The notes below the pieces were generated by a model that was not told the DNA's origin, made no database searches, and saw nothing but the letters and a program-made list of their open reading frames with translations. A program made the translations under genes and the position numbers. Shown piece by piece: positions 11,608 through 22,849 of a DNA stretch of 64,000 bases. Location of the stretch: the NCBI GenBank assembly GCA_045649925.1, contig JAZRQS010000004.1:9138-73137 (forward strand). Reading direction: 5' to 3'. Origin of the DNA: Eubacteriales bacterium. Its GTDB lineage: Bacteria > Bacillota > Clostridia > Oscillospirales > CAG-272. How positions within the stretch are numbered: the stretch's first letter is position 1; every line of letters starts with the position of its first letter.

Positions 11608-11684
11608 CCGCCTGTAGCTCAGCTGGATAGAGTACCGGATTCCGATTCCGTTGGTCGTAGGTTCGAATCCTATCAGGCGGGCCA
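11608..11684 (+). tRNA. tRNA-Arg (anticodon CCG), CCA encoded
   Basis: Hand-folded cloverleaf. Acceptor CCGCCTG/CAGGCGG, D arm GCTC-AGCTGGATA-GAGT, anticodon stem CCGGA/TCCGT with loop TTCCGAT (anticodon CCG at 34-36), variable loop TGGTC, T arm GTAGG-TTCGAAT-CCTAT, discriminator G, then CCA. Confidence 0.9.
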
Positions 11685-11717: not shown

Positions 11718-11779
11718 TTTCATTTCACGCTTGTGCTTTCTGCTCATGTAAACGGTGTGCGGAAAAAGTGCTATACATA

Positions 11780-11808
11780 TTGACTTTTTTCCCTGTTTAT
11801 GTTACAAT
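11780..11808 (+). promoter_or_regulatory. sigma-A-type promoter of glyA
   Basis: TTGACT (11780-11785), 17 nt, TACAAT (11803-11808). It lies inside the over-extended track ORF 11755-13083. Confidence 0.5.
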
Positions 11809-11844
11809 AGATTTGTTATAAATACAACTTTTGAGAGGTATGCT

Positions 11845-13083
11845 ATGAACTTTTTTGATGAATTGGCAAATTATGATTCAGAGGTGTTTGAGGCGTGCGA
11901 TCTTGAGCTGAAAAGACAGCAGCACAACATCGAGCTTATAGCTTCTGAAAATATCGTTTCTCGTGCAGTGCTTTTGGCAGCGGGAACAGTTCTTACAAAC
12001 AAATACGCCGAGGGTTACCCCGGCAAGAGATATTACGGTGGATGCCAGTGCGTTGACATCGTAGAGAATATTGCACGCGAGAGAGCAAAGAAGCTCTTTG
12101 GCGCAGAGCATGCGAATGTTCAGCCTCATAGTGGCGCATCTGCAAATCTTGCAGTATTCTTTGCACTCCTTAACCCCGGTGATACAGTAATGGGCCTTAA
12201 TCTTGCACATGGTGGACACCTTTCCCATGGCTCTCCTGTAAATATATCAGGTAAGTATTTCAATATTGTGCCTTACTGCGTTTCCGACGATACGGAAACT
12301 CTTGACTACGAGTCCATCAGAGCTACAGCGCTTGAGTGCAAGCCCAAGATGATCATTGCAGGCGCAAGTGCTTATTCAAGAACTATTGATTTTGCAAAGA
12401 TAAGAGAGATAGCTGATGAGGTTGGCGCATATTTCATGGTTGATATGGCTCATATAGCAGGTCTTGTAGCTGCAGGACTTCACCCCAATCCCGTACCCCA
12501 TGCGCATGTAGTTACTACCACTACACACAAGACGCTTCGCGGTCCTCGTGGTGGACTTATCCTTTGTCGTGAGGAGTTCGCAAAGCAGATAGACAAGGCA
12601 GTTTTCCCAGGCACACAGGGTGGCCCTCTTATGCACATAATCGCCGCAAAGGCAGTGGCTCTCGGCGAGGCTCTTACCGATGAGTTCAAGGAATATCAGG
12701 CGCAGATAGTTAAGAATGCAAGCGTTCTTTGCGAGGCGCTCAAGAGCGAGGGCTTCAGAGTGGTTTCTGACGGAACTGACAACCACCTTATGCTCATCGA
12801 CCTTCGCCCCTTTGGTATAACGGGTAAGGAGTTTGAGCATCGTCTTGACGAGGTTCATATTACAGTAAACAAGAACGCTATTCCCAACGACCCTGAAAGT
12901 CCCTTCGTTACAAGTGGTATCCGTGTAGGTACACCTGCTGTAACAAGCAGAGGCTTCAAGGAAGAGGAGATGCTCAAGATAGCAAAGTGGATGGGCGCTA
13001 TCGCTTCTGATTTTGAGGCAAACAAGGATAAGGTAACTCGCGAGGTTATGGAGCTTTGCGAGAAGTTCCCCATCTATTCCTAA
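11845..13083 (+). CDS. glyA: serine hydroxymethyltransferase
   Basis: Start moved to the ATG at 11845 ([11 protein letters not shown]...). Motifs: [24 protein letters not shown], and [14 protein letters not shown] containing the PLP lysine. Confidence 0.95.
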
Positions 13084-13101: not shown

Positions 13102-13137
13102 AAATACGGCTGTCCTTTTTGGAGGATAGCCGTATTT
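13102..13137 (+). terminator. putative terminator after glyA
   Basis: AAATACGGCT (13102-13111) pairs with AGCCGTATTT (13128-13137). The U-tract is weak. Confidence 0.5.
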
Positions 13138-13182
13138 ATTCATAATATAATTATATTTAAGGAAACTTTTTTCTTTTGGCTA

Positions 13183-13211
13183 TTGACTTTTTTTGTCGTC
13201 TGTGCTATACT
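13183..13211 (+). promoter_or_regulatory. sigma-A-type promoter of the T-box operon
   Basis: TTGACT (13183-13188), a 17-nt spacer ending in TGc (extended -10), then TATACT (13206-13211). Confidence 0.6.
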
Positions 13212-13244
13212 TTGTATAGTTTTTATCAGTTGAAAACATTTAAA

Positions 13245-13499
13245 CACGATGACCAGAAACAAGTAGCGCTATTTTAAGCCTGCAGAGAGCTGTCGGACGG
13301 TGCAAGACAGAGGTGGAGAATAGATGTGAATACATTTTGCGAGTGGCGTGCCGAATTTTGAGTAGGACACGACGGGAGTGCCCGATATAGCACCAGGGTA
13401 TATATGTACCCGATGAGGTCCATACTGCGAGGCATGGATGAACTGAGGTGGTAACACGAGATCTCTCGTCCTCTGAATTAAGTTTCAGGGGCTTTTTTT
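13245..13499 (+). promoter_or_regulatory. T-box riboswitch leader, specifier UAC (Tyr), with intrinsic terminator
   Basis: Hand-folded elements:
- GA/K-turn: CAC-GAUGA (13245-52) opposite CGA-GUG (13340-45).
- AGUA (13262-65).
- AG bay AGAGAG (13284-89).
- Distal helix CUGUC/GACAG.
- Specifier loop GAA-UAC-A (13328-34).
- T-box bulge UGGUAAC (13449-55) between antiterminator helices GAGG/CCUC and ACGAG/CUCGU.
- Terminator CCUCUGAA/UUCAGGGG (13470-91) followed by U7. Confidence 0.85.
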
Positions 13500-13527
13500 A
13501 TTGCCCCAAAAGGAAGGATTTTAAATT

Positions 13528-15165
13528 ATGCCAATTACCGAAATTTTGCAAAAGAATGCGGATTTTTACCCCAACGACATAAGTCTTGTGGAAATAAATC
13601 CTCAGCTTGAAAATCATCAGAGATTGACTTGGAGAGAGTATTCCTTGATAGAGTCAAATCCCAATGAGGCATATCGTAAGGAGCTCACTTGGGGGGATTT
13701 CAACAAGCAGGCAAACAGATTTGCAAATCTGCTTTTGACACGAGGAATTAAAAAGGGTGACAAGGTAGCCATTTTGCTTATGAACTGCATTGACTGGCTT
13801 CCTATATACTTTGGTATCTTGAAGACGGGAGCTATGGCAGTACCCCTCAACTACCGTTATACATCAGATGAGATCAAGTATTGTCTTGATCTTTCCGACT
13901 CGGATTTCATTATCTTTGGCCCTGAATTTACAGGACGTATAGAGCAGATATTCTCACGTGTAAAGCGTATAAAGACGTGGCTCTATCTCGGAGATGACTG
14001 TCCGACCTTTGCAGAAAGCTATGAGAGCTTGATCTCATACTGCTCCTCAAAGAGCCCCAAGATAAAATTGACAGACGACGATGATGCGGCTATATATTTC
14101 TCGTCGGGAACTACAGGCTTCCCCAAGGCGATAATACATAAGCACAGGAGTCTTGTTCACGCCGCTATGACGGAGCAGACCCACCACTCACAGACAAAGG
14201 ACGATAACTTCCTCTGCATTCCTCCTCTCTATCATACAGGAGCAAAAATGCACTGGTTTGGTAGCTTCCTTGTCGGTGGAAAGGCGGTTATCCTCAAGGG
14301 TATAAAGCCCGAGTGGATACTTGAAACTGCCGCAAGAGAGCAGTGTAGCATAGTATGGCTGCTCGTTCCGTGGGCGCAGGATATACTCGACTCTCTCGAC
14401 AGAGGAGATCTCAAACTCTCCGACTATGACCTTTCAAAGTGGAGATTGATGCATATAGGCGCACAGCCTGTACCTCCGAGCCTTATAAAGCGCTGGAAAA
14501 AGTATTTCCCCCATCATCAGTATGACACAAACTACGGACTTTCCGAGTCTATAGGCCCTGGCTGTGTGCATCTTGGCGTCGAGAACATACACAAGGTAGG
14601 CGCTATAGGTAAGGCAGGCTTTGGCTGGCAGACAAAGATAATAGACGAAAACGGAAATATAGTCGAGCGTGGCGAGGTCGGTGAGCTCGCAGTAAAGGGA
14701 CCTGGCGTTATGACCGCTTACTACAAGGACGAGCGCGCTACTGCCGAGGTTTTACATGACGGATGGCTTCACACAGGTGATATGGCGCAGGAAGACGCAG
14801 ACGGATTTATCTTCCTTGTTGACAGAAAGAAGGATGTTATCATTTCTGGTGGTGAAAACCTTTATCCTGTACAGATAGAGGACTTTATCCGCAAAAACGA
14901 TAAGGTCAGCGATGTAGCCGTTATCGGCTTGCCCGATGCAAGACTTGGCGAGATAGCCGCGGCTATCGTTCAGGTAAAGGATGGAATGACCTTGACACAG
15001 GAGGAGCTTGACGACTTCTTCCTTGAATTGCCGAGATATAAGAGACCGAGAAAGGTCATCTTTGCAGACGTGCCGAGAAACCCCACAGGAAAGATAGAAA
15101 AGCCCAAGCTTCGCCAGATTTATTGTGGCGAGAGCGTTGTCGCACAGCAAAACGAAATTAAGTAA
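13528..15165 (+). CDS. ANL-superfamily acyl-CoA synthetase (AMP-forming), substrate unknown
   Basis: 545 aa. AMP-binding motifs YFSSGTTGFPKA, YGLSE, the GWLHTGD hinge, and C-terminal PRNPTGKIEK. AAGGAAGGA SD upstream. Confidence 0.85.
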   Translation: MPITEILQKNADFYPNDISLVEINPQLENHQRLTWREYSLIESNPNEAYRKELTWGDFNKQANRFANLLLTRGIKKGDKVAILLMNCIDWLPIYFGILKTGAMAVPLNYRYTSDEIKYCLDLSDSDFIIFGPEFTGRIEQIFSRVKRIKTWLYLGDDCPTFAESYESLISYCSSKSPKIKLTDDDDAAIYFSSGTTGFPKAIIHKHRSLVHAAMTEQTHHSQTKDDNFLCIPPLYHTGAKMHWFGSFLVGGKAVILKGIKPEWILETAAREQCSIVWLLVPWAQDILDSLDRGDLKLSDYDLSKWRLMHIGAQPVPPSLIKRWKKYFPHHQYDTNYGLSESIGPGCVHLGVENIHKVGAIGKAGFGWQTKIIDENGNIVERGEVGELAVKGPGVMTAYYKDERATAEVLHDGWLHTGDMAQEDADGFIFLVDRKKDVIISGGENLYPVQIEDFIRKNDKVSDVAVIGLPDARLGEIAAAIVQVKDGMTLTQEELDDFFLELPRYKRPRKVIFADVPRNPTGKIEKPKLRQIYCGESVVAQQNEIK

Positions 15166-15185
15166 TCCTTGAAAGGAATTCAAAT

Positions 15186-16928
15186 ATGAAAAAACTCATG
15201 CTTGGAAATGAGGCAGTTGCCAGAGGAGCATACGAGGCAGGCGTTAATGTAGTCGCCTCTTACCCTGGAACACCCTCTACAGAAATTACCGAAAATATTG
15301 TTAAGTACGATGAGATATATGCTGAATGGTCGCCTAATGAGAAGGTGGCGGCAGAGGTCGCTATAGGTGCGTCTATCGGTGGCGCGAGAAGTATGTCCTG
15401 CATGAAGCACGTAGGTCTTAACGTAATGGCAGACCCCATATTTACAGTAAGCTATACAGGCGTAAACGGCGGACTTGTTTTCTGCGTTGCAGATGACCCC
15501 GGAATGCACTCGTCCCAGAACGAGCAGGATTCCCGTCACTATGCAGAGGCATCTAAGATAACGATGCTTGAGCCCTCGGATTCCGAGGAGTGCAAGGAAT
15601 ACACTCGCATGGCGTTTGACATAAGCGAGCGCTTTGACACGCCTGTATTCATTCGCTTGTCTACAAGAGTATCTCACTCACAGAGCTTGGTAGAGCTTGG
15701 CGAAAGAGCAAATATAGAGCTTAAGCCCTACGAGAAAAACGTGCAGAAGTACGTTATGATGCCTGCTATGGCAGTCAAGAGACACGTAGTGGTAGAGGAC
15801 AGAATGAAGGCGCTCGAGGAGTTTGCAAACACATCTGACCTCAACGTTGAGGAGATCAACGACGGATGTGAAATAGGTGTTATCACATCGGGAATTTCCT
15901 ATATGTATGCAAAAGAAGCTCTTGGAAACGAGGTAAGCTACCTCAAGCTCGGAATGGTATATCCGCTCCCCTCGGAGAAGATAAAGGCATTTGCCGCAAA
16001 GATGAAGAGGGTAGTTGTAATCGAGGAGCTTGATCCTTTTATAGAAAATGCATGTCGTGCAATGGGACTTGCAGTAGAGGGCAAGAGCCACTTCACTCTG
16101 CTCGGCGAATACACTCCCGCTATGATAAAAAAAGCAGTTTTGGACGAGGATGCTCCCGAGTTTGACGCTCCCAAGGAAGACATTCCGGTACGTCCTCCTG
16201 TAATGTGCGCGGGCTGTCCTCACAGAGCGACATTCTATGTGCTCAAGAAGCTCGGACTTGTAGTTTCGGGCGATATCGGATGCTACACGCTCGGCGCTGT
16301 CGCTCCTCTTGCGAGTGTTGACACCACCATATGCATGGGCGCTTCTGTAAGTGCGGCACATGGTATGGCAAAGGCGCGTGGCGCAGAGTTCAACAAGAAG
16401 CTCGTTTCCGTTATAGGCGACTCCACGTTTATACATTCAGGTATCACAGGTCTTATCGACATCGTGTATAACAAGGGCGCAAACACAGTAATTATCCTTG
16501 ATAACTCTATCACAGGTATGACAGGCCATCAGGAAAACCCCACAACAGGCTATACTATCAGAGGTGAAGAAACTCGTGCAGTAGACCTTTTGGCTCTTTG
16601 TCGAGCAGTCGGTATAGACAACGTAGTTGTTGCAGATCCCTTCGACCTTGACAACTTCGAGAAGATAGTGAAAGAGGAAACAAACAGAGCAGAGCCCTCC
16701 GTCATTATCGCACAGCGTCCCTGCGCACTTCTCAAGCGAGTTAAGTACACAGGCCATTGCTCGATCGACAGTGAAAAGTGCAAGAAGTGTAAGAAGTGCA
16801 TGAAGCTCGGATGCCCTGCAATTTCAGTAATTGACGGCGCTGTAAAGATAGATTTGACACAGTGCAACGGATGCGGACTTTGTATAAACGTATGCCCGTT
16901 CGATGCTATAGAAAAGAAGGAGGACTGA
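15186..16928 (+). CDS. iorA: indolepyruvate:ferredoxin oxidoreductase alpha subunit
   Basis: 580 aa. The start MLGNEAVARGAYEAGV...ASYPGTPSTEI is typical of IorA. It has a TPP-binding region (GDSTFIHSG) and two C-terminal ferredoxin motifs (CKKCKKCMKLGCPA, CNGCGLCINVCP). Confidence 0.9.
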   Translation: MKKLMLGNEAVARGAYEAGVNVVASYPGTPSTEITENIVKYDEIYAEWSPNEKVAAEVAIGASIGGARSMSCMKHVGLNVMADPIFTVSYTGVNGGLVFCVADDPGMHSSQNEQDSRHYAEASKITMLEPSDSEECKEYTRMAFDISERFDTPVFIRLSTRVSHSQSLVELGERANIELKPYEKNVQKYVMMPAMAVKRHVVVEDRMKALEEFANTSDLNVEEINDGCEIGVITSGISYMYAKEALGNEVSYLKLGMVYPLPSEKIKAFAAKMKRVVVIEELDPFIENACRAMGLAVEGKSHFTLLGEYTPAMIKKAVLDEDAPEFDAPKEDIPVRPPVMCAGCPHRATFYVLKKLGLVVSGDIGCYTLGAVAPLASVDTTICMGASVSAAHGMAKARGAEFNKKLVSVIGDSTFIHSGITGLIDIVYNKGANTVIILDNSITGMTGHQENPTTGYTIRGEETRAVDLLALCRAVGIDNVVVADPFDLDNFEKIVKEETNRAEPSVIIAQRPCALLKRVKYTGHCSIDSEKCKKCKKCMKLGCPAISVIDGAVKIDLTQCNGCGLCINVCPFDAIEKKED

Positions 16929-16931
16929 CAA

Positions 16932-17498
16932 ATGAACAAGAACGTAATGATAGTCGGCGTAGGCGGTCAGGGAACACTCCTTGCATCGAGAATACTCGGA
17001 AATGCTGTAATCAGTCAGGGACACGATGTAAAGGTCTCTGAGGTTCACGGAATGAGCCAGAGAGGTGGAAGCGTTGTTACATACGTAAAATACGGTGACA
17101 AGGTATATTCACCTATTATTGATAAGGGTGAGGCTGACATTATTCTCGCGTTTGAGTTGCTTGAGGCTTACAGAGCGCTCCCTTACTTGAAAAAGGGTGG
17201 AATAATGATCATCAACGACAGAGAAATTTCTCCTATGCCTGTAATTACAGGAGCGATGAAATATCCCGAAAAAATTAAAGAGAAAATAGCAGAAAAGGCA
17301 AACATCGTTACCCTTGACGCTCTTGAGATTGCAATAAAGGCAGGAAATTTCAAGGCAGTAAACGTAGTTTTAATCGGTGTAATGGCAAAGAATACGGACA
17401 TTCCTTACGATGTGTGGGTAGAAACAATAAAGAGCACAGTGCCCTCGAAGTTCTTGGATGTAAACCTTGCCGCATTTGATATGGGTTATAATTATTAA
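16932..17498 (+). CDS. iorB: indolepyruvate:ferredoxin oxidoreductase beta subunit
   Basis: 188 aa. The start VMIVGVGGQGTLLASRILG and SEVHGMSQRGGSV are typical of IorB (gamma-type 2-oxoacid oxidoreductase domain). It starts 3 nt after iorA. Confidence 0.9.
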   Translation: MNKNVMIVGVGGQGTLLASRILGNAVISQGHDVKVSEVHGMSQRGGSVVTYVKYGDKVYSPIIDKGEADIILAFELLEAYRALPYLKKGGIMIINDREISPMPVITGAMKYPEKIKEKIAEKANIVTLDALEIAIKAGNFKAVNVVLIGVMAKNTDIPYDVWVETIKSTVPSKFLDVNLAAFDMGYNY

Positions 17499-17530
17499 GC
17501 TTAACATTTGATTTTTAAGAGGTAACTAAA

Positions 17531-18829
17531 ATGATACACCAGAAGGATATAGAATGCATGCCTCGCGAGGAGCTTAAAAAGCTCCAGAGCGAACGCCTTG
17601 TATGGCAGGTAAAGAGAATGTACGAAAGAGTAGAGCTCTTCCGTACGAGAATGGATGAAATAGGTCTTAAGCCTGAGGATATTCACGGCATAGAGGACCT
17701 CCACCGTCTCCCTTTCTCCTACAAACAGGATCTGCGCGATTATTATCCCTACGGACTCTTTGCAGAGAGCATGGATAAGATAGTGCGAGTTCACGCTTCG
17801 TCCGGAACTACAGGAAAGCAGATAGTAGTAGGTTATACACGAAAGGACCTTGAAAGCTGGGCAAACTGCTTTGCAAGAGCGCTCAAGGCTACAGGCGCTG
17901 ATGAAAACTCTTTCGTTCAGGTTTCCTACGGCTATGGTCTATTTACAGGTGGTCTTGGCGCGCATGAGGGCTCACAGCTCATTGGCGCTACAGTAATTCC
18001 TACTTCCGCAGGAAATACCCCCAGACAGATACAGACAATGATAGATTTCGGCGCTACCGTGCTTTGCTGTACTCCTTCATATGCGCTCTTCCTCGCTGAA
18101 ACCATTGAGGAAATGGGCGTAAAGGATCAGCTCAAACTCAAGGCGGGAATTTTCGGTGCTGAGCCTTGGACAGAGGAGATGCGCCACACCATCGAAGAAA
18201 AGCTTGGTATCAAGGCATATGATATTTACGGCCTTTCCGAGATAATGGGACCTGGAGTATCATACGAGTGCGAATGCCAGTGCGGAATGCACGTGTGCGA
18301 GGACTTGTTTATCCCTGAAATAATAGATCCCGACACCCTTGAGGTTCTCCCTGAGGGAAGCTCGGGCGAGCTTGTATTCACCACACTAACAAAGGAAGGC
18401 TTCCCACTCATCAGATACAGAACAAGAGATATCTGCTCGCTCAATTACGAGACCTGTAAGTGTGGCAGGACCTTCGTCAGAATGAACAAGCCATCTGGCA
18501 GAAGCGACGACATGCTTATTATCCGTGGCGTAAATGTGTTCCCCTCACAGATCGAGGAGGTTATCATAAAGTCGAGTGGCGTTACTCCTAACTATCAGAT
18601 TATCGTAGACAGAGTAAACAATACAGACACATTCGACCTCAATGTAGAAATGAACGAGGAGCTCTTCTCAGACGACGTTAAGTCCGTTATCGCAGTAGAG
18701 AAGAACATTACAGAGCAGCTTCGCTCCACTCTCGGTATAGGCGTCAAGGTGCACCTTGTAAACCCCAAATCTATTGCGAGAAGCGAAGGCAAGGCAAAGC
18801 GCGTAATAGATAACAGAAAGCTTAGATAA
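17531..18829 (+). CDS. paaK: phenylacetate-CoA ligase family protein (PaaK-type)
   Basis: 432 aa with the PaaK-like motifs SSGTTGK, YGLSE and IRYRTRD, and the C-terminal VFPSQIEEV. Confidence 0.85.
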   Translation: MIHQKDIECMPREELKKLQSERLVWQVKRMYERVELFRTRMDEIGLKPEDIHGIEDLHRLPFSYKQDLRDYYPYGLFAESMDKIVRVHASSGTTGKQIVVGYTRKDLESWANCFARALKATGADENSFVQVSYGYGLFTGGLGAHEGSQLIGATVIPTSAGNTPRQIQTMIDFGATVLCCTPSYALFLAETIEEMGVKDQLKLKAGIFGAEPWTEEMRHTIEEKLGIKAYDIYGLSEIMGPGVSYECECQCGMHVCEDLFIPEIIDPDTLEVLPEGSSGELVFTTLTKEGFPLIRYRTRDICSLNYETCKCGRTFVRMNKPSGRSDDMLIIRGVNVFPSQIEEVIIKSSGVTPNYQIIVDRVNNTDTFDLNVEMNEELFSDDVKSVIAVEKNITEQLRSTLGIGVKVHLVNPKSIARSEGKAKRVIDNRKLR

Positions 18830-18841
18830 GGAGAATTGAAT

Positions 18842-19273
18842 ATGGCTATAACACAATTATCCGTTTTTGTAGAGAATAAAGCCGGCAGACTCGCCACAAT
18901 AGTAGACCTTCTCGGAAAAAACAACATAAATATGAGAGCGCTTTCAATAGCAGATACCGCAGACTTCGGTATCCTTCGCATCATTGTTGACGATTCTCAG
19001 CGCGCCATCTCCTTGCTCTCCGATGCAGGGATTATGGTAAAGCGTACAAAGGTTATCGCAGTTGCTATCGACGATGTTCCCGGCGGGCTTTCAAAGATAC
19101 TTACCACACTTAGCAATAACGGAGTAGTGATAGAGTATATGTACGCCTTTGTAGGAAAGACTCACACAAAGGCTATCACAGTTATCAGAACTGATGATAT
19201 AAACAAGACGCTTGACGTGCTTGAAAAGAACGATATTCATGCAATAGGCGATGAGGAAATACAGGACATCTGA
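18842..19273 (+). CDS. ACT-domain protein (small-molecule-binding regulatory domain)
   Basis: I chose the ATG at 18842 (AAGGAGA SD 7 nt upstream) rather than the TTG at 18836. It has two ACT-like repeats (QLSVFVENKAGRLATIVDLL ... AVAIDDVPGGLSKILTTL). Confidence 0.8.
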   Translation: MAITQLSVFVENKAGRLATIVDLLGKNNINMRALSIADTADFGILRIIVDDSQRAISLLSDAGIMVKRTKVIAVAIDDVPGGLSKILTTLSNNGVVIEYMYAFVGKTHTKAITVIRTDDINKTLDVLEKNDIHAIGDEEIQDI

Positions 19274-19292
19274 TTTCCGTTCGCAACAAAAA

Positions 19293-19323
19293 CCGCTATG
19301 GTGATTTCACCATAGCGGTTTTT
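19293..19323 (+). terminator. rho-independent terminator ending the T-box operon
   Basis: 12-bp perfect stem CCGCTATGGTGA / TCACCATAGCGG followed by T5. Confidence 0.85.
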
Positions 19324-19357: not shown

Positions 19358-19393
19358 AAAAACAGCTCTGCCGAAAGGCAAAGCTGTTTTTTT
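19358..19393. terminator. terminator hairpin after the ispH-S1 gene (A-run / T-run on both sides)
   Basis: CAGCTCTGCC-GAAA-GGCAAAGCTG (one C.A mismatch), flanked by A5 and T7. Confidence 0.7.
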
Positions 19394-19403
19394 GTAGCTT
19401 AAA

Positions 19404-21479
19404 TTAGTCGATAACCTTTACAATGTAGGGAGCCATCTCTGCCTCGAGCTGTGCCTTTTCCTCAGCCTCAGCCTTTGCAGCAGCGATTCTCTCTGCCTTT
19501 TCAGCCTCTCTGCGAGCCATCTCTTCGATCTTCTTTGTGTCCTCGATGAGTGCCTTCATGGAAAGGCTGAGCTTACGATGCTCGTCGTCGATCTCGGTGA
19601 TCTTAACATCAACCTCCTGACCGATTGTAAGAACTTCCTTGGGATCCTCTATTCTGTCGTGAGAAATCTTGGAGATGTGGATAAGACCGTCAACACCATC
19701 AGCAACCTCAGCAAATGCTCCGAAGGGCATAAGGTTTACTATCTTAGCCTTTGTAACGTCGCCTTCCTTGAAGTTCTTTGTGAACTGGTACCAGGAATCC
19801 ATCTCCTGTGTCTTGTATCCGAGAGAAATGCGCTTCTTTTCTACGTCAAGCTCCTTGACATATACATCGATCTGCTGACCGATTGTAAGAACCTGTGAAG
19901 GATGCTTGATACGCTTCCAGGAAAGCTCTGTGTTGTGAACCATGCCGTCGATACCGCCGATGTCCACAAATGCGCCGTAGGGTGCAAAATTCTTAACTGT
20001 ACCCATATAGTGCTTACCTTCCTCGATGCCTGCCCAAGCAGCAGCCTCAGCTGCCTTGCGCTGCTCGTTGAGGATAACCTTTATAGAAGCAACTGCATGC
20101 TTGCGGTGCTCGTCGATGTCGATAATTCTTACGCTCTGTGTTGTGCCTACGAGTGTAGAAATATCAGCATCTCTGGAAAGACCTGTCTGGGAAGCGGGAA
20201 TGAATATCTCATTACCCTTGATAGAGATCAAAAGACCTCCCTTGAGTGCCTTTGTGATTGTTCCTTCAAGTGTAGCGCCCTCCTTGTAGAGATTGCGGAT
20301 TTCTACCCAGCTGTTGTCAGCGTCTACTCTCTTCTTAGAGAGAGTAGCAGTACCCTTACCATCCTCTACTCTGATTACGAAAGCGGTGATTTCGCTTCCC
20401 ACTGCAAACATTTTACGCAGGTCGGCAGAGTTATCATCGGTGATCTGCTCACGGGGGATTATTCCCGTAACTTTTGTACCAAGGTCTACGTAGACTTCAT
20501 TGTCAGCAATAGCCGTAATGATACCGTGCACTGTTTCTCCTGTATGTAAAGTTTTGAGTGATTGTTCCAGCATTTGTTCAAAATTTTCGCCAGTCATGTT
20601 TTTATAAACCTCCATTATTATACCGTTCGGAGTTGAAGCTCCGGCGGTTATTGCAACTTTAGAATTTGTGAGGAGCAGGTCGGGAGGCAGCTCGTCTGCC
20701 GTCTCTATCCATACCGTGCTCGGACATAGCTTTTTACACAGCTCATACAGCTTTGCTGTATTTGAGCTCGTCTTTCCACCCACGACGACTATCGCATCGG
20801 AGCTTTCAGCAAGCTCAAGGGCTTCGGTCTGCCTGTCCTCAGTCACACTACATATTGTATCAAAAAATTTTGCATTTGTATATAGTTTTTCGATATTTTT
20901 TTGACTTTTTTTCCACAGTTTTAGATTTTGTGTGGTCTGAGCAGCAAAAACTAACTGTTTTTTGTCAAAAACGCCTTGTTTTTGAAGCTCTTCAAATTCT
21001 TCTTCAGACGAGAAGATGTATTTTTCTCCCTTTACGTAACTCAAAATGCCTTGAACCTCGGGATGATTTTCCGTACCGAGAAGAACGAAGCGCGTGCTTT
21101 CATCTGTATTTTCGTCAGCAATTTTGTGAATGCGCTTTACGAAGGGGCAGGTGAGGTCGCTGACACTAAAGCCCTCGTATTCCTCCTCCAGCTCTCGTAG
21201 CTTGCGCTCTACGTCGGCAGGAATTCCGTGTGTCCTGATTACGAGGTGTACTTTCTTGCCATTCTCGCTTTTTCTTGCAAGAGCCTCTGCCTCTTCAAAG
21301 GTGACACTGTGTACGCCACGCTTTTCAAGGGAAGTGACGTAGACGTCGTTGTGTATCAGCTTTCCTAAGGTGTATATTTCGGTATCACCGTCATTTGTGG
21401 AAATAAGGCTCTCGACAAAATCTGTCGCGCGCTTTACACCAAAGCAAAATCCGGCATGCTTTGCAATTGTGATGCTCAT
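19404..21479 (-). CDS. ispH: bifunctional 4-hydroxy-3-methylbut-2-enyl diphosphate reductase (IspH) / ribosomal protein S1 (four S1 repeats)
   Basis: 691 aa. The N-terminal roughly 285 aa is IspH/LytB (AKHAGFCFGVKRA, CPFV, TICSVT). The C-terminus carries four S1 OB-fold repeats (GxV.....GAFVD.G..G..H.S). Confidence 0.9.
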   Translation of the reverse strand: MSITIAKHAGFCFGVKRATDFVESLISTNDGDTEIYTLGKLIHNDVYVTSLEKRGVHSVTFEEAEALARKSENGKKVHLVIRTHGIPADVERKLRELEEEYEGFSVSDLTCPFVKRIHKIADENTDESTRFVLLGTENHPEVQGILSYVKGEKYIFSSEEEFEELQKQGVFDKKQLVFAAQTTQNLKLWKKSQKNIEKLYTNAKFFDTICSVTEDRQTEALELAESSDAIVVVGGKTSSNTAKLYELCKKLCPSTVWIETADELPPDLLLTNSKVAITAGASTPNGIIMEVYKNMTGENFEQMLEQSLKTLHTGETVHGIITAIADNEVYVDLGTKVTGIIPREQITDDNSADLRKMFAVGSEITAFVIRVEDGKGTATLSKKRVDADNSWVEIRNLYKEGATLEGTITKALKGGLLISIKGNEIFIPASQTGLSRDADISTLVGTTQSVRIIDIDEHRKHAVASIKVILNEQRKAAEAAAWAGIEEGKHYMGTVKNFAPYGAFVDIGGIDGMVHNTELSWKRIKHPSQVLTIGQQIDVYVKELDVEKKRISLGYKTQEMDSWYQFTKNFKEGDVTKAKIVNLMPFGAFAEVADGVDGLIHISKISHDRIEDPKEVLTIGQEVDVKITEIDDEHRKLSLSMKALIEDTKKIEEMARREAEKAERIAAAKAEAEEKAQLEAEMAPYIVKVID

Positions 21480-22849
21480 TGTTCCTCATTTGTGGCTATG
21501 CTTGGGGAAAAATCGCCCAGCCTGCATATCTCGGAAAAAATTCTTTCCGTCGCCGCCTTGTATTCCTTGCTTCCGCCTGATGAAAATCCTAATTCGCTGT
21601 ATTCGATGGGCTTTCCTATGATTACGTCAACTCGGCGAAAAAGAGAGTATTTCTGTTTTTTTGTTTTGATGCATACGGGAATTACCGTAGCTTTTGAGTG
21701 GTACGCTATCATACCTGCTCCATTTTTGACCTCGGTATCAGCAGGGTTTTTGCCCTTGCATCTCGTGCCCTGCGGGAATATAGCTATCGCCTCACCGTTT
21801 TTTACGAGCGAGATAGCCTTTTTCATGGCGCCGACATCTCCACCCTTGCGCTCGAGCTTACATCCACCGAGAGCGATAATAGCAGAGCGCAAAATCGGTA
21901 TTTTGAAAAGCTCTGCCTTTGCGAGATAGCGCAGACGCCTGCTTTTAGGCAGACATGCGGAGATGGAAAAAACGTCCCAAAGCGAAACGTGGTTTGCGCA
22001 TACTATACATCCGCCTTCAAGAGGGAAGTTGTCCTGTCCCTGTGGCTTGAGCTGGAGGATAAAACGGAAGAATTTCGCAAAGAGGGTATGGAAAACACGA
22101 TAAAATCTCGATTGCTCTATCTTGCTTTCGGATGTTTTTTCACCGCTGTCAGCGTTTTTTTTTACTTGGTCGTCAGGAGAGTTTTTTTTTAAGCCGTTTT
22201 CGATAATTCTGATAGCCTCTGCGACAGTTTCCTCTGCAGAAAGCTCGGAGTTGTCGAGGACTGTGGCGTCGGGAGCGGCGATGGCGGGAGCGACTGCTCT
22301 CGTGCTATCGTTTGTGTCTCTCTGTATCATATCTGCGAGCACCTCCTCGTAGGTGGTGGAAATGCCCTTTGCGATAAGCTCAGCATATCTGCGCTTTGCT
22401 CTCGCCTCATTTGATGCAGTGAGGAATATCTTGACGTCTGCATCGGGGAATATAACTGTGCCGATGTCACGTCCGTCCATTATAATATCGTTTGTGTTGG
22501 CGATAGAGCGCTGCATATCCAAAAGGAATGCTCGCACCTCAGGAATAGCAGAAACCTTTGACGCATACATAGAGATCTCCGGAGTACGTATTTTGTCGCC
22601 TACGTCCTCGCCACAGAGAAATACGTGCTGCTCGCCGTCAATAAAGCGCATATCCGCAACGACGGAGGGAAGTGCTGCAACAACGGCGGCACTATCGTCG
22701 GGGGAAATGCCGTTTTTCTGCATATAAAGTCCGACTGTGCGATAAAGCGCGCCTGTGTCGACATATACTATGTTCATTTTGTGAGCTACGGCGCGTGCAA
22801 GACTGCTTTTTCCTGCTCCGCTAGGTCCGTCAACTGCAATTTTTATCAT
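21476..22849 (-). CDS. cmk: fusion of cytidylate kinase (Cmk) and 1-acyl-sn-glycerol-3-phosphate acyltransferase (PlsC-like)
   Basis: A single 457-aa ORF. The N-terminus is Cmk (MIKIAVDGPSGAGKSS, DGRDIGT). The C-terminus is an LPLAT (HX4D as NHVSLWD, FPQGTR). Its stop overlaps the ispH start (ATGA). Confidence 0.85.
   Translation of the reverse strand: MIKIAVDGPSGAGKSSLARAVAHKMNIVYVDTGALYRTVGLYMQKNGISPDDSAAVVAALPSVVADMRFIDGEQHVFLCGEDVGDKIRTPEISMYASKVSAIPEVRAFLLDMQRSIANTNDIIMDGRDIGTVIFPDADVKIFLTASNEARAKRRYAELIAKGISTTYEEVLADMIQRDTNDSTRAVAPAIAAPDATVLDNSELSAEETVAEAIRIIENGLKKNSPDDQVKKNADSGEKTSESKIEQSRFYRVFHTLFAKFFRFILQLKPQGQDNFPLEGGCIVCANHVSLWDVFSISACLPKSRRLRYLAKAELFKIPILRSAIIALGGCKLERKGGDVGAMKKAISLVKNGEAIAIFPQGTRCKGKNPADTEVKNGAGMIAYHSKATVIPVCIKTKKQKYSLFRRVDVIIGKPIEYSELGFSSGGSKEYKAATERIFSEICRLGDFSPSIATNEEQ
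22155..22190 (-). repeat. two A9 homopolymer tracts (coding strand), 18 nt apart, in the Cmk-PlsC linker
   Basis: Plus strand has T9 at 22155-22163 and T9 at 22182-22190. The coding strand reads tta-aaa-aaa-aac and gta-aaa-aaa-aac (LKKN / VKKN). Confidence 0.9.

Follow-up and report, generated by a model that had tools for sequence, protein, structure and literature searches.

The 64-kb window analysed here (64,000 nucleotides of contig JAZRQS010000004.1, GenBank assembly GCA_045649925.1, from an uncultured gut or rumen bacterium of the Clostridia, order Eubacteriales) contains a T-box leader with a tyrosine specifier directly ahead of five genes. These encode an AMP-forming acyl-CoA synthetase (ACS), the two subunits (IorA and IorB) of an indolepyruvate/arylpyruvate:ferredoxin oxidoreductase (IOR), a PaaK-like arylacetate-CoA ligase, and a protein with a pair of ACT domains. 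The most probable reading of the sequence, with a probability of about 0.72, is that these genes form an assimilatory operon for the salvage of arylacetates, induced by tyrosine starvation. This reading is built on the architecture of the leader and of its operon, the families of the genes, the conservation of the T-box/operon pairing among related bacteria, and the linkage between the specifier codon and the ACS gene. The elements of the leader and the five genes are as follows:

13240..13500, + strand: T-box leader, comprising Stem I, Stem III, antiterminator and terminator (Rfam RF00230).
13331..13333, + strand: specifier codon UAC (Tyr), read from the sequence, in the context GAA-UAC-A (13328-13334).
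13445..13473, + strand: antiterminator, consisting of GAGG, the bulge UGGUAAC, ACGAG, the loop AUCU, and CUCGUCCUC (RNAfold, -8.9 kcal/mol).
13470..13499, + strand: leader terminator, a hairpin CCUCUGAA/UUCAGGGG at 13470-13491 followed by U7 (-11.5 kcal/mol).
13528..15165, + strand: ACS, 545 amino acids (aa) (Pfam AMP-binding and AMP-binding_C).
15186..16928, + strand: IorA, alpha subunit (TIGR03336, 751 bits, above the cut-off of 650.9).
16932..17498, + strand: IorB, beta subunit (NF005325, 285.5 bits, above the cut-off of 230; Pfam POR).
17531..18829, + strand: PaaK-like AMP-forming arylacetate-CoA ligase (TIGR02155, 546.8 bits).
18842..19273, + strand: ACT-domain pair protein, with an alternative TTG start at 18836 (PF19571 ACT_8, 112.6 bits).

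The leader is the sole T-box detected by an Rfam scan of the window. It matches RF00230 at 13240-13476 over the full length of the model (positions 1-219), scores 103.5 bits (E = 9.5e-22) where the gathering score is 93, and lies upstream of the segment 13528-19323 to which the initial annotation of this DNA was assigned. The specifier loop has the arrangement typical of the family, that is, a codon followed by a purine and placed 3' of the GAA (S-turn) element. The tyrosine specifier proposed in that annotation is confirmed both by the sequence and by the columns of the Rfam alignment, which hold UAC in the window, UAC in the related locus L041 and UUC in the related locus L039; this agreement makes the codon assignment independent of reading by eye alone. 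The conserved T-box motif AGGUGGUAACACG is present within the antiterminator, the 3' part of which, after the loop AUCU, reads CUCGU CCUC. The CCUC strand is common to the 3' strand of the antiterminator and the 5' arm of the terminator, and the two structures are therefore mutually exclusive. The UGGU of the bulge would be able to pair with the 3' NCCA end of a tRNA, which fits a discriminator A; tRNA-Tyr has A73 at this position. It is established for transcriptional T-boxes that read-through is ON when the cognate tRNA is uncharged. The window leader has the build of a standard transcriptional T-box and, from this mechanism and the mutually exclusive structures, is predicted to allow read-through when tRNA-Tyr is uncharged.

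Regarding the five proteins, IorA and IorB both score above their NCBIfam equivalog cut-offs, and IorA contains the Pfam domains POR_N, TPP_enzyme_C, and Fer4, corresponding to a thiamine pyrophosphate domain and a 2x[4Fe-4S] domain. The enzyme is predicted to act on arylpyruvates and arylacetyl-CoA, a prediction to which the Tyr and Phe specifiers found on the operons lend indirect support. The PaaK-like ligase is very similar to solved phenylacetate-CoA ligases (2Y27, E = 3e-133; 4R1L, E = 2e-109) and is named PaaK-like, not PaaK, because its score against TIGR02155 is lower than the equivalog cut-off (546.8 vs 646.3 bits). The ACS has PRK06187 as its top family match (414 bits, under the cut-off of 476) and remains under every NCBIfam cut-off, so that no specific name is justified. 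Its closest solved structures are FadD13, FadD5, and the feruloyl-CoA and 4-coumarate-CoA ligases, with a malonyl ligase also among them, a range of fatty-acyl, feruloyl, 4-coumarate and malonyl ligases that does not resolve the substrate. The ACT protein has a solved homologue in PDB 2F06 (E = 3.7e-30), and its gene starts at most 150 nt after that of PaaK in 77 of 90 loci; an allosteric-sensing role for this protein is speculative.

We infer the direction of flux, the substrates and the role of the ACT protein as follows. Upon tyrosine scarcity, the GUA anticodon of uncharged tRNA-Tyr would pair with the Stem I specifier, UAC, and its free 3' NCCA end with the UGGU bulge; the antiterminator would thus be stabilized and the RNA polymerase would read past the leader terminator into the five genes. 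The two AMP-forming ligases would spend ATP in turning imported arylacetates into CoA thioesters, the ACS most likely taking 4-hydroxyphenylacetate, and PaaK phenylacetate and perhaps indoleacetate. Using reduced ferredoxin and CO2, IorAB would reductively carboxylate the thioester to an arylpyruvate, from which an aminotransferase encoded elsewhere in the genome would make tyrosine (and phenylalanine). The ACT protein would probably respond to a small ligand and adjust the activity of PaaK, or of the pathway, accordingly.

The conservation of this arrangement was surveyed in 160 loci encoding relatives of IorA (58-92% identity), obtained in two scans and numbered with the prefix L. The titled records, which derive from the genome scan, are metagenome-assembled genomes (MAGs) of Clostridia/Bacillota, the gut or the rumen being the source of most; represented among them are Congzhengia, Christensenellaceae, Acutalibacteraceae, Monoglobus, Ruminococcus, and Oscillospiraceae. 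Removal of redundancy at 97% nucleotide identity gave 143 clusters, and the T-box counts are limited to loci in which 400 nt or more of sequence was available upstream. As judged by tblastn, the gene order ACS-IorA-IorB-PaaK-ACT is kept in the closer relatives, while the distant ones have IorA-IorB-PaaK-ACT without the ACS. Leaders were sought by iterative nhmmer seeded with the window leader, in place of a 13-mer motif search that missed leaders and returned chance matches. This search found 20 distinct loci with a homologous leader immediately 5' of the operon, and 10 of the 12 leaders that were re-scanned exceed the Rfam gathering score; in 22 loci without an nhmmer match, an Rfam scan detected neither a T-box nor any other Rfam regulatory element. 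In the non-redundant set, a T-box precedes 18/39 ACS-containing operons vs 1/79 ACS-less operons (Fisher's exact p = 1.2e-9, phylogeny not being corrected for), and the pairing of a Tyr T-box with the operon recurs in 18 species-level clusters. The codon UAC is present in every leader of an ACS-type operon that was read, the one exception overall being the ACS-less L039, which carries UUC (Phe).

L039 is the only ACS-less operon with a T-box, and it has a close counterpart in L052. Both loci (L039, 2741-5322; L052, 4083-8967) belong to Christensenellaceae MAGs and are orthologous, being collinear over about 10 kb with 78-84% nucleotide identity in a stretch that includes the leader, IorAB, PaaK, ACT, and the flanking genes. 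L052, with a UAC specifier, has two extra genes, encoding an ACS and a 224-aa multi-pass membrane protein; both are absent from L039, which has UUC in a leader otherwise about 80% identical to that of L052. In this pair, the change of specifier seems to be tied to the loss or gain of genes. The comparison suggests that the IorAB-PaaK-ACT core may suffice for the Phe (phenylacetate) branch and that the ACS and the membrane protein may make the module serve Tyr, with 4-hydroxyphenylacetate as the obvious candidate substrate. Because of its correlation with the Tyr T-box and its absence from the Phe-type L039, the ACS is most likely a 4-hydroxyphenylacetate-CoA ligase, and we consider it a candidate for this activity.

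The same data could also be explained by a general salvage of aromatic acids (phenylacetate, 4-hydroxyphenylacetate, and indoleacetate), in which tRNA-Tyr would be a proxy sensor and the ACS would not be specific for 4-hydroxyphenylacetate. The co-transcription of PaaK and the ACS speaks for this explanation, as do the acceptance of Phe-, Tyr-, and Trp-derived substrates by IORs and PaaK-like ligases (PMC13285125) and the wide distribution of an ACS-less core module that is mostly unregulated. We nonetheless regard it as rather unlikely, since the T-box tracks the ACS across the survey and the ACS and the membrane protein are the exact difference between the Tyr-specifier locus and its Phe-specifier orthologue. 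The initial annotation had focused on Tyr and 4-hydroxyphenylacetate; a restriction to Tyr is perhaps too narrow, because PaaK is co-transcribed and an ACS-less module is found under a Phe T-box (L039). The operon probably serves more than Tyr.

The direction of flux is approached mainly through the genes that accompany the operon in the relatives. In L003, L005, L008, L013, L014, L021, L024, and L031, the first gene after the T-box, ahead of the ACS, encodes an SSF Na+:solute symporter (PF00474), and the same symporter heads several T-box-less operons. In L056 (1440-4318), genes for the TRAP components DctP, DctQ, and DctM are located directly 5' of ACS-IorA-IorB-PaaK-ACT on the same strand, with no T-box. 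The SSF and TRAP systems are putative importers of carboxylates. Class I aminotransferases follow the ACT gene in L021 and L031, and a minimal operon in L097 (4058-9491) has the order T-box(Tyr)-ACS-IorA-IorB-aminotransferase, without PaaK or ACT genes; by its gene content, the L097 unit is predicted to be a complete route from acid to amino acid. In the window itself, the ligases and the IOR are linked, an aminotransferase being appended in the relatives L021, L031, and L097. Assimilation is favored because the operons of the relatives include importers (SSF, TRAP) and append aminotransferases, and because a degradation of tyrosine induced by uncharged tRNA-Tyr would be self-defeating; thioester synthesis is favored because both ligases are AMP-forming. 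AMP-forming ligases favor acyl-CoA synthesis, and catabolic IOR/VOR loci carry a phosphotransacylase plus a kinase or an ADP-forming ligase (PMC13285125). Family searches of the five operon genes found no phosphotransacylase, kinase or ADP-forming ligase, so that neither of the combinations that mark a catabolic module is present among these five. In addition, the T-box specifier matched the function of the gene in every experimentally verified case (Wels, 2008). The initial annotation had argued that starvation-ON control implies biosynthesis; the recurrent T-box pairing, the importers, the aminotransferases, and the AMP-forming ligases all support that argument at the level of predicted function.

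According to the opposite explanation, the operon would be catabolic or fermentative (Tyr to 4-hydroxyphenylpyruvate, 4-hydroxyphenylacetyl-CoA and finally 4-hydroxyphenylacetate), in line with the usual annotation of IorAB/PaaK clusters, the T-box being incidental or having another purpose. IOR is reversible, the enzyme of B. thetaiotaomicron reportedly contributes to the formation of phenylacetate (PMC13285125), and many related operons have no T-box. However, induction by uncharged tRNA-Tyr would drain tyrosine when it is scarce, AMP-forming ligases conserve no ATP, no Pta, kinase or ADP-forming ligase occurs among the operon genes, and the related operons contain uptake systems, including a TRAP system dependent on a substrate-binding protein. 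A catabolic operon is therefore very improbable.

Several points weigh against the assimilatory, tyrosine-induced operon or limit its reach. The T-box is absent from 21/39 ACS-type operons and from nearly all ACS-less ones; T-box control is a lineage-specific trait and cannot be generalised. The operon of the window has neither an importer nor an aminotransferase gene. IOR is a reversible enzyme, and that of B. thetaiotaomicron has been linked to the conversion of Phe to phenylacetate (PMC13285125). The substrate proposed for the ACS is suggested by one orthologous pair and a correlation. Finally, PaaK-type ligases can already activate 4-hydroxyphenylacetate (PMC13285125), which leaves the presence of a separate ACS unexplained.

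The leaders of the relatives also bear on whether the switch is intact. The sequences of the terminator stems vary among species, and a hairpin with a U-tract is kept in most leaders. By eye, a hairpin and then a U-rich run were seen in L031, L047, and L097, and a clear hairpin without a following U-run in L087. In L006 (3985-4079), only the 3' part of a leader is found upstream of the ACS, with a degenerate GTGGCGGTATCGC motif, a terminator hairpin and a T-run; it has no Stem I and no Rfam match, and could represent either the remains of a decayed leader or an attenuator that acts constitutively. This remnant, together with an ACS that lies below every NCBIfam cut-off and whose nearest structures are fatty-acyl and cinnamate-type ligases, would be compatible with an explanation in which the enzymes act on non-aromatic 2-oxoacids or acids, or in which the T-box switch has decayed. 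We give little credence to it: IorA and IorB score above the equivalog cut-offs for IOR, Tyr and Phe are the only specifiers seen on these operons, the leader of the window is complete, and the differences between species in the terminator stems are compensatory.

Other features of the related loci deserve to be recorded. A multi-pass membrane protein of 224-231 aa is encoded between iorB and paaK in Christensenellaceae-type operons (L041, 5774-6448; L082, 8328-9005; also L034, L052, and L081). It has no match in Pfam or NCBIfam, and may be an arylacetate permease in place of the SSF symporter. In the distant relatives L129, L135, L138, L141, L154, and L157, an ACS gene is located upstream of IorA on the opposite strand, in divergent orientation, accompanied in L129 by an SSF symporter; the linkage of ACS and IOR therefore persists without co-transcription. 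Some T-boxes adjoin IOR operons and face other genes, namely those at L042:3754-3940 (- strand), L089:12924-13154 (- strand), and L076:12581-12850 (+ strand). The L042 T-box contains GAA-UUC-A (Phe) and precedes an 877-aa minus-strand open reading frame (ORF), and that of L089 contains AAC (Asn).

The boundaries of the operon in the window are defined by the following features:

11755-13083: glyA, the next gene upstream of the operon.
13102..13139, + strand: terminator hairpin of glyA (RNAfold, -24.9 kcal/mol).
13183..13211, + strand: sigma-70-type promoter TTGACT-17-TATACT with an upstream TG (extended -10), identified by consensus match only.
19288..19323, + strand: terminator hairpin of the operon with a U-run (RNAfold, -25.3 kcal/mol).

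The glyA hairpin shields the operon from upstream read-through. The promoter is the top-scoring site of the regional scan, with 10/12 consensus matches. In the ORF listing, the five plus-strand ORFs are separated by gaps of 20, 3, 32, and 12 nt, exactly as the initial annotation had given them. Because these gaps do not exceed 32 nt and terminators are found at both ends, the five genes are predicted to constitute one self-contained transcription unit with one promoter and one T-box. The promoter site and the flanking hairpins agree with the single promoter and leader, the strong 3' terminator and the T-box control of all five genes that had been proposed, and the profile searches uphold the gene families then assigned (acyl-CoA synthetase, iorA, iorB, PaaK-type ligase, and ACT protein). 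The next gene downstream is an ispH-rpsA fusion (19404-21479), located on the minus strand and convergent with the operon. A second hairpin with T-runs (aaaacagctctgcc...ggcaaagctgttttttt, 19361-19397) lies between the operon terminator and this fusion, and is probably the ispH-rpsA terminator or a bidirectional one. The fusion adjoins a 457-aa ORF (21476-22849, - strand) with an N-terminal (d)CMP kinase (TIGR00017, 219 bits) and a C-terminal 1-acylglycerol-3-phosphate acyltransferase domain (TIGR00530). On the other side, between a queG-like gene and glyA, there is a tRNA gene (11608-11681, Rfam 61.1 bits) with an anticodon loop that, read by eye, is UUCCGAU, giving CCG (Arg). No aromatic-pathway gene was found elsewhere in the window, the 20 other ORFs scanned being housekeeping genes.

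The iorAB and paaK genes are commonly scored in microbiome studies as markers for the production of phenylacetate, 4-hydroxyphenylacetate or indoleacetate. The starvation-ON tRNA-Tyr switch, the importers, and the aminotransferases argue that these acids are instead removed by the abundant, uncultured Clostridia described here, and enzymes that are usually counted as producers of aromatic acids look here like consumers. A more detailed version of this idea, which we put forward only tentatively, is that the ACS and either the SSF symporter or the 224-aa protein form a dedicated add-on for the uptake and activation of 4-hydroxyphenylacetate, by which a general IOR/PaaK salvage module of the phenylacetate type would become one that makes tyrosine, and that the specifier has co-evolved with it (UAC with the add-on, UUC without it). 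If this is true, many uncultured gut and rumen Clostridia, a large group, would be Tyr- or Phe-dependent cross-feeders that use up 4-hydroxyphenylacetate and phenylacetate, the precursors of p-cresol and phenylacetylglutamine, instead of releasing them. The reductive carboxylation of aryl acids in rumen bacteria, known since 1965, would gain a concrete, regulated set of bacterial genes, and the specifier codon would offer a simple genomic guess at the amino acid supplied by each variant of the operon.

In comparison with known systems, the leader is like the T-box leaders of amino-acid genes in Firmicutes (RF00230), for instance that of Bacillus subtilis tyrS. It shares with them the Stem I specifier loop GAA-UAC-A, the distal motifs AGAGA and GGUG, the T-box sequence with a UGGN bulge, the competition between antiterminator and terminator, and the transcriptional read-out. 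It differs in its targets, which encode a 2-oxoacid:ferredoxin oxidoreductase plus a pair of acyl-CoA ligases and belong neither to the aminoacyl-tRNA synthetases nor to the shikimate pathway or the amino-acid transporters. No T-box on IOR or PaaK genes was found in the searchable literature, a search that did not extend to Vitreschak (2008) or the RegPrecise tables; in Wels (2008), CoA and oxidoreductases are not mentioned.

Catabolic loci, such as HpdDEFG-HpdJ-HpdK of C. scatologenes, the IOR plus kinase of C. difficile, and the IOR plus ADP-forming ligase of Pyrococcus, perform the same chemistry in the opposite direction; they gain ATP via phosphotransacylase plus kinase or via an ADP-forming ligase (PMC13285125), whereas the ligases here are all AMP-forming. 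The clusters of Bacteroides and other gut anaerobes have the same IorA-IorB-PaaK-ACT core; the ACT protein and the PaaK-like ligase of the window are homologous to PDB 2F06 and PDB 4R1L, respectively. Those clusters are usually read as producers of phenylacetate and indoleacetate, and no control by amino-acid starvation has been described for them; unlike these clusters, the operon of the window has an ACS and a Tyr T-box, and its relatives have importers. The IOR-linked AMP-forming enzyme of Bacteroides is an arylacetate-CoA ligase for which a biosynthetic role has already been suggested (PMC13285125, 2026).

For the direction of flux there is a parallel in Methanococcus maripaludis, where aromatic amino acids were shown to be made from aryl acids by an IOR-dependent route (Porat et al., 2004, as cited in PMC4162585). 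An IorAB-type enzyme is used there in the carboxylating direction, supplying precursors of Phe, Tyr, and Trp from exogenous aryl acids; that route is archaeal and without a T-box, unlike the bacterial host, the extra FadD-like ligase, and the Tyr-specific RNA switch predicted here. For rumen anaerobes, the reductive carboxylation of phenylacetate to Phe was reported by Allison (1965), as listed among the references of PMC7356843. With these precedents in M. maripaludis, Bacteroides and the rumen, the direction hypothesis is not new in concept, although the direction has been too little appreciated. The initial annotation, whose biosynthetic reading of IOR has substantial comparative support, had thus presented as more novel an idea that was already in the literature. 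The notion of the ACS as a Tyr-specific add-on appears to be new, and what this operon and its relatives may contribute beyond the known systems is the co-variation of specifier and gene content, together with a candidate 4-hydroxyphenylacetate-CoA ligase.

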